Positions 12,481 through 31,307 of a stretch of DNA of 38,370 nt are shown here, piece after piece. Below the pieces are notes generated by a model. It was not told where the DNA came from, searched no databases, and was given only the letters and a program-made list of their open reading frames with translations. The DNA comes from a virus. Its lineage: Duplodnaviria > Heunggongvirae > Uroviricota > Caudoviricetes. The stretch's first letter is position 1; the number at the start of each line of letters is the position of its first letter. The DNA is taken from positions 1-38,370 of IMG/VR virus record IMGVR_UViG_2645727901_000003; one strand, 5' to 3'. The position numbers were made by a program, and so were the translations under genes.

Positions 12481-12497
12481 ATTACCTCACAGGTAAT
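12481..12497. promoter_or_regulatory. 17-bp palindrome ATTACCT-CAC-AGGTAAT (candidate operator), copy 1
   Basis: Perfect 7-3-7 inverted repeat in the divergent region between tailspike and the plus-strand BRO genes; second copy at 31291..31307. Confidence 0.45.
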
Positions 12498-12535
12498 TAA
12501 AAATCATACTGGTGAAACAGTGGTTCATCTGATAT

Positions 12536-12552
12536 ATGTATATATATACAGT
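12536..12552. promoter_or_regulatory. Weak LexA-box-like sequence / (TA)n tract
   Basis: ATGTATATATATACAGT: TGT-N8-ACAG, lacking the C of CTGT; upstream of BRO-family genes. Confidence 0.25.
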
Positions 12553-12572
12553 GTTTGTATGGAGAATGGTTA

Positions 12573-12833
12573 ATGCAACAGCGGTATCACCACCCACTGG
12601 AAGATGGATTTTATGAAAGAGTACACACGCCGGGAGGCGTTATATCCCTGGTGGAGAACTCGCACCTTATGACTTTATTGCGGGAACTTGATAAAGACGG
12701 GTTCAACGTCGACGGGCCGCTGGCCGAACTTACTGCACTGGTGAACTATGTCACCAGCTCACAGCTATCCATGAAGGATGTGCAGACACATCTCGATTAC
12801 TGTGTTGAACAGCTACGAAGACAAACCACATAA
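12573..12833 (+). CDS. Stand-alone paralog of antirepressor C-terminal domain
   Basis: 86 aa from ATG 12573 with GGAGAA Shine-Dalgarno; LRELDKDGFNVDGPLAELTALVNYV...VQTHLDY aligns to the C-terminus of the 13149..13838 protein. Confidence 0.5.
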   Translation: MQQRYHHPLEDGFYERVHTPGGVISLVENSHLMTLLRELDKDGFNVDGPLAELTALVNYVTSSQLSMKDVQTHLDYCVEQLRRQTT

Positions 12834-12970
12834 GGTTGAAATATCATACACTATGCGCTTATTATTACCTTTACGGTAAATTTACAACGCAAAATACTTG
12901 TGCCATAGTGATCAGGCACTGGCAAAATCCAGTGCCGGGATTGGAACCCCGGATACTAAAAGGCGCATTC

Positions 12971-12990
12971 ACCGCGCAAGCGGTTTTTTT
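12971..12990 (+). terminator. Intrinsic terminator
   Basis: ACCGC-GCAA-GCGGT hairpin plus UUUUUUU. Confidence 0.5.
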
Positions 12991-13148
12991 ATGCGTTAAG
13001 CACGGCCACATTCGCATTATGGTGGGCTGTGTGGGGGCACCGAAAGGTGCGCCGGGTCCTTTTAGCCGGTAGTTCCAACCCTGCACAGTTCACCACCTCC
13101 GAGATTGGAACCTCCGGTGGTGATTAACCAGACTAAAAGGTGATCACT

Positions 13149-28682: not shown

Positions 28683-28693
28683 TGGTTATCTCC

Positions 28694-29017
28694 TTAAACC
28701 GGGATCGTTTTGGCTTTAAGTTGAGCCAGAACAGCGGCAAGAGTGGTGCGCAGTGCCGCGGTGTCAGTCAGCAGCGCGTTGTATTTTGAAACCAGGTCGT
28801 TGTGGTCTGTGAGCAAGCCAGCAACATCAGACGCCGAAGATGCTGTGTCCGCTGTTGCAGTCATGGCTGCTGGCGCCGCGATTGTCGCGCCCAGTTTTAC
28901 ACCGCCGTAATCAGTCGTGGTCGGAGCGCCAATTACTGCCGGAGCAGGATCCGGAACCTCAACTACCTGGCTGGAACCATCTAGGCGCACGACGCGCTGG
29001 GTTTGTACCTGTGTCAT
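28694..29017 (-). CDS. Small head-assembly protein
   Basis: 107 aa from internal ATG at 29017 (ATGA overlap with upstream stop); ORF track N-extension overlaps neighbour. Confidence 0.35.
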   Translation of the reverse strand: MTQVQTQRVVRLDGSSQVVEVPDPAPAVIGAPTTTDYGGVKLGATIAAPAAMTATADTASSASDVAGLLTDHNDLVSKYNALLTDTAALRTTLAAVLAQLKAKTIPV

Positions 29018-29313
29018 AAATTGTCCTCTCTGGCCTCTGCGGCCATCTTCAGATACTGATCTGGGCAGTGCGTCATGACGCGCTGAAACATAACCAGAGC
29101 CAGGTTGCGCTGCCCTTCGTTGAATGCTGTGATGTGCGGATCTACGTTGAAGCAAGCTCCGAACACCTGACCTTTCTCAAGCAGTGACCAGATCACGCGT
29201 CGGCCCTGCTCGCTGCCCATAACGAACTGGATGTCGTCGATATCGCGCTGCGCCAGAAGTTGCTGTTTGGCGTCAATCTCTGCTTTTCGGCCTTCGTCAT
29301 CGATATCAGTCAT
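29014..29313 (-). CDS. Small phage protein (Bbp19-like?)
   Basis: 99 aa, coupled to portal gene. Confidence 0.3.
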   Translation of the reverse strand: MTDIDDEGRKAEIDAKQQLLAQRDIDDIQFVMGSEQGRRVIWSLLEKGQVFGACFNVDPHITAFNEGQRNLALVMFQRVMTHCPDQYLKMAAEAREDNL

Positions 29314-30980
29314 TGCTGCGGTGCTCCTGCTGCATTAGCGATAGCGGTTAATGCGCTCGGGTCAGTGGTCTGCGTTTCGCTGAGAGTCTTGGCTCCCTGT
29401 GCTGCGGCCTGCCCCATTGCCATTGCCTGTGCGGCTTGTGCCTGTTTGGCGCGCTCTTCACGAATACCCTGTACCTGCTCCTGCGGAACGATGACCGTTG
29501 GCGATACGCCGGACATTTCTGAGAACGCGTCGATAGCCTCATCCACGTCGAGCTTGTCGAGTGCTTCAGGTTTGAATTGTGCGAGTTGACCGATGAAGCC
29601 AACGGTCTGCGACAGACTGGTGAGGCCGATAGATTTCTGTGCCTGCGCCATCACGGATATGTATTCGATACGCAGCGGCATACCCTGCATAACGTCCGGC
29701 GGTGGAGGAAGCATGTTCTTGCGCGCCATGATGGAGAACACGCGGTCAATAAGCGGGTTAAGTGCTTCGTCGTTCAGGCGCTCCAGTACCGGACCGAGCA
29801 TCAGCAGTTTCTCTTCCTTCATCTCGATCACCGCTTCCACCGGCATAGAGCGGGTGTTGATGTTTTGCAGCATCATGAAGAGGTCGACGAAGTAGGCGCT
29901 GTTGATGGTCTGGCGGGTATCCTGAATGTCAGCGAGCAGATCTGCTGTATTCGGGTTTACCAGGTATGCAGGCTTGAAACCGTCCTGACCGCTCAACACA
30001 TCGAGGTACGTCACATCACCAGGCAGCAGGGAAACACGCTGTGTTTTTAGCGAGGTAGGTGCAACCATAGGCGGGTTAGTAGCTTTATCGATGAGTTGGG
30101 CTTTACGCTTCTGCTCAACCTGAAGCGCTTTGACCTGACCGAGAGCCAGCATGCCAGGGCAGGATGAGGCGTAAACGTCCTCGCCGTTAACTTCCCAGCG
30201 TGGAGCCAGGATCGGAAATTCATCGAAGCCAGATTCACGCAGCAGCTTGTCGGAGTCGCCGCCAGTCTCAAAGTACACGGAGCGGAACGGTTTGTTCTTG
30301 CTGTCCATCTTCCCGGTATCACGGTTAACGTTTGGAGTAATGCAGTGGTTAACCTCGATCCACGTTTCATACGTGCCGTTTTGCCACATCCCTTGCACCG
30401 ATGAGCTGACATTATCCAGACCGAATTCCTGCACAAGCTGGCGAACAGTCATGGAGAACTGACGGAAGGATGTGTCGACGCTGCCGCGCGGACTGTTAGC
30501 CAGGTAGTAGCTGCCAATGGGGAAAGGCATTGTGCGGATCACGTCCTGGTCATCTTCGAGCACAGCCATTGCAGCGGTACCGAAAGTTCCCAGGCTGGCG
30601 TACATGACAGGCAGTGACTGATACAGGTTAGACTTGTTGAACACTTCGTTCATACGGCGCTGCACGACTTCAAGCCACACCTTAACCGGTCCGTAATCCA
30701 TCATGTCAGGGTCAGGCGTTGCCAGTTTGAACCATGGGCGGGCCGGGCTGGTGATGCCGGACATCATGCCGCTGGACAGAATGCGCTGAGCCATTGAACC
30801 GGTAGGATCAACAATCTTGGTATTACGACGATCATCACGGTTTACATCAGACGTCAGAAAGCGGGAACCGCGCGGATTGATGAAGTCGCTCAGGTCACGC
30901 CAGTGTGACTCGAACGATGTGCGCTCATTCTTCAACTGTGCGAGTTGCTTCAGCAGACGCTCTTTTTCGGTTTCCGCCAT
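29310..30980 (-). CDS. Portal / head-to-tail connector protein (T7 gp8-like)
   Basis: 556 aa; C-terminal QAQAAQAMAMGQAAAQGAKT resembles recalled T7 connector C-terminus; follows terL. Confidence 0.65.
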   Translation of the reverse strand: MAETEKERLLKQLAQLKNERTSFESHWRDLSDFINPRGSRFLTSDVNRDDRRNTKIVDPTGSMAQRILSSGMMSGITSPARPWFKLATPDPDMMDYGPVKVWLEVVQRRMNEVFNKSNLYQSLPVMYASLGTFGTAAMAVLEDDQDVIRTMPFPIGSYYLANSPRGSVDTSFRQFSMTVRQLVQEFGLDNVSSSVQGMWQNGTYETWIEVNHCITPNVNRDTGKMDSKNKPFRSVYFETGGDSDKLLRESGFDEFPILAPRWEVNGEDVYASSCPGMLALGQVKALQVEQKRKAQLIDKATNPPMVAPTSLKTQRVSLLPGDVTYLDVLSGQDGFKPAYLVNPNTADLLADIQDTRQTINSAYFVDLFMMLQNINTRSMPVEAVIEMKEEKLLMLGPVLERLNDEALNPLIDRVFSIMARKNMLPPPPDVMQGMPLRIEYISVMAQAQKSIGLTSLSQTVGFIGQLAQFKPEALDKLDVDEAIDAFSEMSGVSPTVIVPQEQVQGIREERAKQAQAAQAMAMGQAAAQGAKTLSETQTTDPSALTAIANAAGAPQQ

Positions 30981-30994
30981 CTCTGCCTACTCCG

Positions 30995-31201
30995 TTACTG
31001 ACCGAGCAGCGTTTTACCGCTGGTGTTTGCGGTTGAGGTGTCGCCCTGCGCACCAGTCAGCAGAGTGGAACTGCGGCCAGCGGCTGCACGGCGGCGGCGC
31101 TCTTCGTCATCACGAGAACTGACAACTGCTGCATCCTGCTCCTGTGGCGCGGCCTGTACTTCTGGTGCTGCTGGCACTGATGGCTTGCTGCCGATACACA
31201 T
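30995..31201 (-). CDS. Small low-complexity protein upstream of portal
   Basis: 68 aa, ATG with GGAG Shine-Dalgarno; may be spurious. Confidence 0.3.
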   Translation of the reverse strand: MCIGSKPSVPAAPEVQAAPQEQDAAVVSSRDDEERRRRAAAGRSSTLLTGAQGDTSTANTSGKTLLGQ

Positions 31202-31290
31202 AGCAATAGCTCCGTACGCAATTAAATTATTACCAATTTAACCACATATGATTTATTTAGCGTAGGATATTGACACATATAACATCAGAT

Positions 31291-31307
31291 ATTACCTTTT
31301 AGGTAAT
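31291..31307. promoter_or_regulatory. 17-bp palindrome ATTACCT-TTT-AGGTAAT (candidate operator), copy 2
   Basis: Same half-sites as 12481..12497; overlaps the -35 region of an extended -10 element. Confidence 0.45.

Follow-up and report, generated by a model that had tools for sequence, protein, structure and literature searches.

In the epsilon15/SPC32H-like prophage analysed here, the palindromes ATTACC-N5-GGTAAT are very probably operators at which the gp38-type lysogeny repressor, Rep, acts, judging from sequence comparison with relatives. The operator motif itself is already known from the annotation of epsilon15. We infer that Rep binds four such sites in the DNA studied, affects the promoters located there and represses them by occlusion.

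The window, that is, the whole stretch of 38,370 nt that was analysed, is an entire draft-assembly contig with an epsilon15-like (Uetakevirus) prophage. The contig end at 38370 falls inside the early-right genes. In contrast to epsilon15 and SPC32H, the contig is without the immunity region, and no helix-turn-helix repressor or rep gene was found on its whole length of 38370 nt. Because the contig has no rep gene, the cognate repressor was deduced from relatives. The left 7.4 kb of the contig is a different integrative element.

Palindromic sites in the window

The original prediction described two 17-bp copies of ATTACCT-N3-AGGTAAT at divergent junctions between genes on opposite strands. Both copies were found at 12481-12497 and 31291-31307, and both lie at such junctions. 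The 7+3+7 geometry is true of these two copies, but what the family as a whole conserves is ATTACC-N5-GGTAAT (6+5+6). The sites at 35046-35062 and 12864-12880 had been overlooked because 7+3+7 was required. The sites are as follows.

12481..12497, no strand assigned: Rep-type operator ATTACCTCACAGGTAAT, between ant (plus strand) and tailspike (minus strand); PWM 24.1 bits
12864..12880, no strand assigned: variant Rep-type site ATTACC-N5-GGTAAA, ATTACCTTTACGGTAAA; PWM 24.5 bits
31291..31307, no strand assigned: Rep-type operator ATTACCTTTTAGGTAAT, between the gp3/portal block (minus strand) and a plus-strand leader RNA; PWM 27.0 bits
35046..35062, no strand assigned: Rep-type operator, third perfect copy, ATTACCGTTTTGGTAAT; PWM 25.7 bits
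35028..35044, no strand assigned: weak possible second site of uncertain status, GTTACCACCGAAGTAAT; PWM 10.8 bits, near the null mean maximum

With up to two mismatches, the pattern occurs four times in the window against 0.12 expected, and a count of four was reached in 0/100 shuffles. The position weight matrix (PWM) was built only from sites that flank rep, 19 distinct ones taken from the immunity regions of seven relatives. It picked exactly four window sites (24.1-27.0 bits), and the next best match scored 10.8. The null maximum had a mean of 9.4 and a highest value of 19.7 bits, and the four window sites exceeded all 200 null simulations. The four sites therefore match an operator consensus derived from the sites that flank rep.

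Conservation of the sites in related phages

The GenBank record of epsilon15 (AY150271.2) contains seven 'protein_bind: repressor / lysogeny' sites, all of the form ATTACC-N5-GGTAAT; these 'repressor' features are predictions of the annotators. Three are next to the repressor gene, and three are at positions homologous to sites in the window. The 12481 site corresponds to 19895-19911 of epsilon15, between gp19 and the tailspike gene, the 31291 site to 2931-2947, upstream of gp3/portal, and the 35046 site to 11/12-27, upstream of terS. The motif and the three operator positions in epsilon15 and SPC32H (Uetakevirus; PDB 5D4Z/5D50) are the same as those of the window, and ant is likewise the neighbouring gene.

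The same operator layout was found in SPC32H, PAT1, phiV10, Tyrion, TL-2011b, and Klebsiella and Enterobacter relatives. In L009, a close relative of this contig, 3+2 sites flank a rep gene whose product is nearly identical to epsilon15 gp38 and SPC32H Rep; the closest complete relative has the same Rep. Across more than 25 related loci, which represent at least five genera, the half-sites are invariant and the spacers and flanks vary. The 12481 site is kept in all ten genomes with an identical Ant, and also in Citrobacter and Scandinavium. The GGTAAA variant is kept at the 12864 position in Tyrion, phiV10 and TL-2011b, and a site of this type is present in loci L015-L018, L021 and L033. The motif was kept in every related phage examined, contrary to the lack of conservation that was to count against the original prediction. 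A full-text literature search for the motif returned nothing relevant.

The palindrome had been proposed as a common operator coordinating moron and late-gene expression. A common operator is supported, as the motif, which is kept in relatives, coincides with or adjoins candidate core promoter elements where several transcription units start. A dedicated link between morons and late genes is not, since the same motif is annotated as a repressor site in epsilon15 and clusters of it flank rep. Nor do the neighbouring plus-strand genes fit the term moron: those beside the tailspike gene are two antirepressor modules, ant and isrK/C4/Bro-N-Ant, and at 31291 the neighbour is a conserved non-coding leader, with variable cargo behind it.

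Tailspike-ant junction and second antirepressor module

The region around the 12481 and 12864 sites contains the following features.

9666..12377, minus strand: tailspike, 903 aa, late gene, with a candidate promoter TTCATA-17-TAGAAT at 12454..12426
12534..12553, plus strand: LexA-box-like element of the ant promoter, ATGT-N8-ACAG (CTGT-N8-ACAG in relatives, from the intergenic alignment)
12573..12833, plus strand: ant, small antirepressor, 86 aa (phmmer against PDB 5d50_E; phrog_450)
12916..13100, plus strand: leader with isrK (12916-12990) and C4 antisense RNA (13015-13100), both Rfam gathering-threshold matches
13140..13838, plus strand: Bro-N antirepressor with a C-terminal Ant-like domain (Pfam Bro-N, E 1.9e-20)

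The ant product matched the SPC32H 'Anti-repressor protein' 5d50_E over 86/86 residues (phmmer E 8.5e-45). A full-length homologue of the partner antirepressor is therefore present beside the 12481 operator. Ant (PDB 5D50) is the partner of Rep and has been characterised structurally. A scan of genome contigs with Ant returned only three loci. The hexamers of the candidate tailspike promoter are conserved in an alignment of ant-tailspike intergenic regions. The best candidate for a tailspike promoter and the ant promoter near the LexA box each lie approximately 60-80 bp downstream of the 12481 operator, so that simple occlusion is not evident at this site.

The LexA-box-like element of the window has ATGT where epsilon15/SPC32H-type relatives have CTGT, and the ATGT allele also occurs in 10/10 genomes with an identical Ant. 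This fixed variant upstream of ant is a side observation that could matter more than the operator itself.

The 12864 variant site overlaps the -35 element (TTTACA) of the isrK/C4/Bro-N promoter. The isrK and C4 leader RNAs scored 76.1 and 77.1 bits with Rfam. The Bro-N protein was assigned to the PHROG category 'anti-repressor Ant', with phrog_450 on residues 149-231, and it shares 41% identity with the small Ant (E 1e-22). The putatively operator-gated isrK/C4/Bro-N-Ant module is absent from epsilon15 and SPC32H, but it is present in phiV10, Tyrion and TL-2011b.

Portal-side junction and leader RNA

The portal-side operator is surrounded by the following features.

29310..31201, minus strand: gp3 (30995-31201) and portal (29310-30980), start of the head block (Pfam Head-tail_con; phrog_831)
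31270..31298, plus strand: candidate promoter TTGACA-17-TACCTT, deduced from sequence, with its -10 inside the left half-site of the operator
31289..31316, minus strand: candidate gp3/portal promoter TCAACA-16-TAATAT, likewise deduced, with its -10 overlapping the left half-site of the operator
31328..31516, plus strand: conserved structured non-coding leader RNA of approximately 185 nt, adjoining the operator, unannotated, with a covarying structure
31517..32055, plus strand: variable cargo downstream of the leader RNA, followed by a terminator at 32131..32150

In the alignment, all eight phages share the TTGACA hexamer and its distance from the operator without change. The candidate gp3/portal promoter scores 8/12, below the threshold of the promoter scanner. 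We tentatively suggest that the portal-side operator might be a single gate for two overlapping divergent promoters, one of which would launch the unannotated, covarying leader RNA of approximately 185 nt.

The cargo slot holds tRNA-Arg in SPC32H; unlike in SPC32H, no tRNA was found in the portal-terminase gap of the window. No Rfam match was obtained for this gap or its homologues. The leader RNA also occurs in P1/P7, between tRNA-Ile and ban, and in Stx2a_1447 and the HK97-like phage mEp390, where it is just downstream of cI. In temperate phages that are otherwise unrelated, epsilon15-like phages among them, it is found beside a repressor gene or shortly after one, or in operons known to be under repressor control.

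Some known RNAs were considered and rejected as identities of the leader. HK022 put RNA was rejected as no sequence similarity to the HK022 pL/pR regions was found. AgvB was considered because the leader of relatives starts with CACAACA, but AgvB sits elsewhere in lambdoid phages and its Rfam model gave no match. The Pas sRNAs are unrelated.

Should the leader prove real, it would represent a phage RNA element that has not been described, is widely shared and moves along with variable cargo. Its role could be that of a translational or processing leader or of a put-like anti-termination element. The operator finding itself adds little new, as it re-identifies, on a draft contig without annotation, the operator annotated in epsilon15 and studied through the SPC32H Rep-Ant switch. 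A leader RNA common to several temperate-phage lineages could matter more.

Terminase-side site

The third perfect copy is 19 nt upstream of the terS start codon, among the following features.

32961..35026, minus strand: terS (34433-35026, true ATG at 35026) and terL (32961-34436); Pfam Terminase_2, gene call of 197 aa
35061..35069, minus strand: candidate extended -10 (TGtTACTAT) for terS, sharing 2 nt with the operator
35101..35078, minus strand: terminator hairpin preceding the candidate -10 of terS

The candidate extended -10 was kept in 8/8 phages, and the operator lies between the terminator and the ribosome-binding site. The weak site at 35028..35044 abuts the operator and covers the ribosome-binding region of terS, and this tandem arrangement is kept in relatives. 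Conserved candidate promoter elements are overlapped by three of the window sites (12864, 31291 and 35046). The late promoters resemble the sigma-70 consensus only weakly, and the promoter scan yielded no match at either the portal or the terS site.

Alternative functions of the palindromes

The sites might be bound mainly by another phage regulator, such as a small Cro-like protein of the gp39 type encoded divergently from rep, or a late-gene activator, rather than by Rep. The weak sigma-70 late promoters would suit activation, relatives encode a 77-aa ORF divergent from rep, and Cro and the repressor share operators in lambda-type switches. We consider this improbable, as arrays of three and two sites on the two sides of rep are the classic operator signature of an immunity repressor, and an operator shared with a Cro-like protein would complement the Rep explanation rather than displace it.

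Use of the palindromes as terminase recognition or module-boundary sequences would account for the copy just ahead of terS, which stands at the very beginning of the linear records of both epsilon15 and SPC32H, and for the sites flanking mosaic cargo slots. Such a packaging or recombination function is very improbable: in relatives, most copies are remote from terS, surrounding rep or located where early genes start, and the palindromic 6+5+6 geometry fits a dimeric helix-turn-helix protein. A role as RNA hairpins (terminators, processing sites or translational operators) is slightly less probable again. Every site can form a 5-7 bp hairpin, and the terS copy has a suitable position between terminator and ribosome-binding site, but the folds are weak (-3.7 to -5.3 kcal/mol) and have no U tract. 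The half-site sequence itself is invariant with no compensatory stem changes, the 'loop' varies freely, and the sites, which are symmetric, precede transcription units of both orientations. Chance likeness of short, AT-rich intergenic DNA has a negligible probability, considering the four matches against 0.12 expected, the PWM scores above all 200 null simulations and the positional conservation over more than 25 loci in at least five genera.

Proposed regulation by Rep

With the palindromes taken as Rep operators, two N-terminal helix-turn-helix domains of Rep would read the ATTACC and GGTAAT half-sites. From centre to centre, the half-sites are separated by 11 bp, roughly one turn of the helix. 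Rep bound in the lysogen would directly and in parallel silence the promoters of terS and of the second antirepressor operon (isrK-C4-Bro-N), the control region of ant and tailspike, and the gp3/portal promoter along with the plus-strand promoter that diverges from it. The TetDloop tetramerisation domain (PMC9986798) suggests that dispersed operators may be looped together. Induction would occur via Ant, which in SPC32H is released by the SOS response and removes Rep from DNA. Removal of Rep would then open all operator-gated units together.

In its summary of Kim et al. 2016, PMC9638917 states that Rep binds palindromic DNA as a tetramer and that an Ant tetramer disassembles Rep. In the Uetakevirus ZX5, overexpression of the repressor abolishes holin and endolysin transcripts (PMC9782041). 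Unlike in epsilon15 and SPC32H, no Rep-type site was found before the lysis genes of the window.

For Uetakevirus prophages, the analysis bears out a useful annotation rule, in which the pattern ATTACC-N5-GGTAA(T/A) marks the starts of putatively Rep-gated transcription units. Among these units are the late genes and the operons of both antirepressors; in relatives, cargo genes belong to them too. Such a rule would help to predict accessory genes that are silent in the lysogen.

Comparison with other repressor systems

The C1 repressor of phage P1 acts at dispersed operators, including those of the immI operon (c4 RNA-icd-ant) and the ban operon. The Rep system resembles it in having a single repressor with many scattered single operators for separate operons. 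In the window, a C4-family RNA is located ahead of the Bro-N antirepressor and behind a Rep-type site, similar to the C4-led antirepressor operon of P1. In contrast, the repressor proteins are unrelated, the P1 operators are asymmetric 17-mers whereas those described here are symmetric, and late genes are controlled in P1 via an activator and not directly.

The 'stoperators' of mycobacteriophage L5 gp71 are approximately 30 asymmetric, orientation-dependent sites. As in L5, repressor sites are found at many transcription-unit starts and would silence the prophage beyond the immunity region. By analogy, the terS copy, located after a terminator and before the ribosome-binding site, could serve as a roadblock too. 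The window differs from L5 in having few, symmetric sites that mostly overlap promoter elements.

Rep is reportedly removed by Ant and not cleaved by RecA, which would distinguish it from the repressors of lambda and P22. Those repressors are also not known to occupy late-gene promoters. The likeness to the OL-OR systems of lambda CI and P22 C2 lies in the 17-bp operators with two-fold symmetry for helix-turn-helix proteins and, in relatives of the window, in the arrays flanking rep. As in P22 immI (Mnt/Arc-ant), the antirepressor gene adjoins the tailspike gene.

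Probable repressor operators in the window

The window is the entire 38,370-bp contig JHTE01000044.1 (assembly GCA_001266335.1). From position 7,740 or thereabouts it is occupied, up to its right end, by an epsilon15-like (Uetakevirus) prophage with minus-strand structural genes. The prophage encodes terS, terL, gp3, portal, capsid, three large internal proteins, a 903-aa tailspike, and the holin, endolysin and spanin lysis genes. The right end of the contig falls within the early-right genes (DUF551, Ead/Ea22), and thus the immunity region is absent.

A 17-bp palindrome had been predicted at 12481-12497 (ATTACCTCACAGGTAAT) and 31291-31307 (ATTACCTTTTAGGTAAT), and both copies were confirmed in the sequence. 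The proposed form, 7-bp half-sites with a 3-bp spacer, was right for these two copies and over-strict for the motif family. A search for ATTACC-N5-GGTAAT, the annotated operator motif of the master lysogeny repressor Rep, added a third perfect match at 35046-35062 and another, with one mismatch, at 12864-12880. The 7+3+7 pattern with at most two mismatches occurred four times against 0.12 expected, a count reached in none of 100 shuffles. A weight matrix was built from 19 distinct rep-flanking sites of seven relatives, with no window or late-region sites included. Only four hits were outstanding: 31291 (27.0 bits), 35046 (25.7), 12864 (24.5) and 12481 (24.1). The next scored 10.8 bits at 35028, abutting the terS operator, and the best scores of 200 Markov-simulated windows averaged 9.4, with a maximum of 19.7.

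Conservation in related phages

The epsilon15 GenBank record AY150271.2 lists seven "protein_bind / repressor / lysogeny" features, all of which are ATTACC-N5-GGTAAT.

Repressor sites annotated in epsilon15
11/12-27: upstream of terS; aligns base for base with window 35046
2931-2947: upstream of gp3/portal; aligns base for base with window 31291
19895-19911: between gp19 and tailspike; aligns base for base with window 12481
32479-32632: three sites beside the repressor gene gp38
35906-35922: upstream of gp43

The same layout was found in SPC32H, PAT1, phiV10, Tyrion, TL-2011b, four Klebsiella/Enterobacter relatives, and L009, a close relative of the window contig whose Rep (198 aa) differs from epsilon15 gp38 and SPC32H Rep at only a few residues. 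The motif search in related phages, named as a check in the original prediction, thus showed conservation in the relatives examined, with invariant half-sites and a drifting 5-bp spacer and flanks, the pattern expected of a dimeric DNA-binding protein. All ten further genomes that encode an identical Ant (the antirepressor partner of Rep) keep the 12481 site, one of them with a changed spacer, and perfect half-sites with different spacers occur at the corresponding site in Citrobacter braakii, C. werkmanii, and a Scandinavium species. A role of the palindromes as RNA helices was rejected, as they fold with only −3.7 to −5.3 kcal/mol and lack a U tract; the invariant half-sites and drifting spacer and flanks also contradict it. 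By consensus, positional homology, conservation pattern, and the partner Ant, the window sites are predicted to be bound by Rep. Operators of this type and family are already known, and the window copies had simply not been annotated.

In the related loci L013-L022, further Rep-type sites closely precede other cargo ORFs on the plus strand, as well as the lysis cassette, for example at 4546-4562 in L016, 3565-3581 in L019, 4341-4357 in L017 and 771-787 in L013. The site precedes the start codon of a cargo ORF by 17 nt in L016 and L019. It follows that accessory genes arriving in this slot tend to bring their own repressor site. Unlike in these relatives, no Rep-type site was detected at the lysis genes of the window. 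A perfect 18-bp palindrome (TAAACCATATATGGTTTA) at 9573-9590, upstream of the holin gene, has the ACC/GGT core of Rep sites with a 6-bp spacer, and shares partial homology with the epsilon15 sequence that follows a one-mismatch Rep-like site in that phage.

Candidate promoters at the operators

According to the summary of Kim et al. 2016 in PMC9638917, the palindromic sites are bound by a Rep tetramer, which an Ant tetramer divides into dimers that leave the DNA. The tetramerisation domain of Rep has been compared to a fold involved in DNA looping (PMC9986798), and in Uetakevirus ZX5 the mRNAs of holin and endolysin were abolished by repressor overexpression (PMC9782041). The arrangement in the window suggests, as the most likely working, that Rep sites gate promoters directly; we infer every promoter assignment below from sequence.

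Candidate elements near the operators
35101..35078: terminator hairpin ending the early-right operon, before terS
35069..35061: candidate extended −10 of terS (TGtTACTAT), overlapping the operator by 2 nt
Minus strand: candidate gp3/portal promoter TCAACA-16-TAATAT, −10 in the left half-site of 31291-31307
Plus strand: candidate promoter TTGACA-17-TACCTT, −10 in the left half-site of 31291-31307
12454..12426: best candidate tailspike promoter, TTCATA-17-TAGAAT

At terS, Rep on the operator would gate the promoter with the overlapping extended −10. A weak second site beside this operator covers the ribosome-binding region, and all four elements (terminator, extended −10, operator, and weak site) are conserved in eight phages. 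At the portal junction, the left half-site holds two candidate −10 elements, one per strand, and a single operator would shut both directions of transcription; this part of the predicted common operator at divergent junctions would hold. The neighbours beside the tailspike are not morons. The plus-strand −35 is a perfect TTGACA, and it and its spacing are invariant in 8/8 phages. No promoter at the portal and terS sites reached the scanner's consensus thresholds, so these promoters may require an activator. Direct gating by Rep is less simple at 12481, where 60-80 bp separate the operator from the tailspike candidate and likewise from the ant promoter near the LexA box. Repression at this site may depend on looping, for instance to the 12864 site at a distance of 383 bp, or on a promoter that has escaped recognition.

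The closest functional analogues of the dispersed Rep sites are the L5 gp71 stoperators and the P1 C1 operators, which are also dispersed and include a site on the c4-icd-ant immI operon. The symmetric 17-bp operator logic of Rep sites is shared by lambda and P22. Rep sites lie on candidate late promoters, a placement that is not known for the repressor sites of lambda or P22.

Two antirepressor units beside the tailspike gene

The plus-strand neighbours of the tailspike gene, originally taken for morons, were identified by homology and Rfam as ant and an isrK/C4/Bro-N-Ant unit. The ORF following the 12481 site, whose true start codon is the ATG at 12573, is homologous over its full length to SPC32H Ant (PDB 5D50 chain E, E 8.5e-45), the antirepressor that was crystallised together with Rep.

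Features of the tailspike-side block
12534-12553, plus: LexA box of ant, ATGT-N8-ACAG
12916-13838, plus: isrK/C4/Bro-N antirepressor module
12916-12990, plus: isrK, Hfq-binding RNA (Rfam, above gathering score)
13015-13100, plus: C4 antisense RNA (Rfam, above gathering score)

The C-terminal 80 residues of the Bro-N protein, encoded 3′ of isrK/C4, are an Ant paralogue (41% identity, E 1e-22). The block thus amounts to an immI-like region made up of two antirepressor units, of which the isrK/C4/Bro-N module resembles P1 immI. The second unit is headed by the 12864 site, whose GGTAAA right half overlaps the −35 of a candidate promoter (TTTACA-17-CATAGT) that ends 7 nt before isrK, and this variant is conserved at the equivalent position in Tyrion, phiV10, and TL-2011b.

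The ant LexA box is canonical (CTGT-N8-ACAG) in epsilon15, SPC32H, PAT1, phiV10, Tyrion, and TL-2011b. A single LexA-box mutation in SPC32N reportedly made Ant constitutive in the 2013 work of Kim and Ryu. The window variant recurs unchanged in 10/10 further genomes that encode this Ant, and so represents a fixed allele rather than a lesion.

Leader RNA and cargo at the portal junction

A conserved non-coding segment of about 185 nt, here called the leader RNA, lies immediately to the right of the portal-side operator.

Features right of the portal-side operator
31328-31516, plus: leader RNA
31498-31677, plus: called 59-aa ORF with a hydrophobic stretch
31517-32055, plus: lineage-specific segment of about 540 bp
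32131-32150: terminator, preceded by a conserved module 3′ of the cargo
32170-32601: phrog_18493 ORF, 3′ of the terminator

An alignment of 11 sequences supported six helices with 30 pairs. Paired cells amounted to 97.9% versus 91.7% in shuffles (0/500), eight pairs showed compensatory changes versus 3.1 expected (0/500), and slid controls were 24-48% paired. G-U pairs showed that the structure is strand-specific, and indels were not multiples of three. In the predicted structure, the last hairpin (CCUCGGAAGAGACGAGG) sequesters a Shine-Dalgarno sequence (GAGG) located 8 nt 5′ of the conserved ATG at 31498. No Rfam match to the leader RNA was found in the window or relatives. It is present in 105 phage records, in every case either lacking annotation at the match or overlapping nothing but hypothetical-protein calls. 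No RNA is annotated for it in P1/P7, where it sits between tRNA-Ile and ban, in mEp390 and Stx2a_1447, where it closely follows the repressor gene, or in Klebsiella and Enterobacter phages.

Among the related loci L023-L026, L006, and L009, an extra stem-loop of about 85 nt separates operator and leader RNA, directly after the operator in Klebsiella/Enterobacter phages and further downstream in Tyrion and L009; the segment is lost from the window and SPC32H. Its 5′ end carries ACAAC, which most of the sequences extend to CACAACA(T); in connection with the anti-sRNA AgvB, CACAACA has been noted as the consensus of GcvB R1 targets. In the gp3 5′ leader, a TTAAATT...AATTTAA inverted repeat surrounds an isolated ATTACC half-site (TTAAATTATTACCAATTTAA) at 31222-31241, and both are invariant in 8/8 aligned phages.

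The cargo 3′ of the leader RNA varies, being the 59-aa ORF and about 400 nt in the window and tRNA-Arg in SPC32H. The segment 31517-32055, at the place of tRNA-Arg in SPC32H and many relatives, had no tRNA, Rfam, or PHROG match.

An integrative element adjoining the prophage

Homology to epsilon15 ceases near 7736, in the attP region, and a separate element adjoins the prophage end.

Features of the adjoining element
1-7433: integrative, mobilisable element, also encoding AlpA, an AAA_25 protein, and a NikA-like mobilisation protein
1365-1463: traJ-II RNA (Rfam)
6243-7433: P4-type integrase, only 52% identical to epsilon15-family (Uetakevirus) integrases

This arrangement suggests that the element and the prophage occupy one attachment site in tandem.
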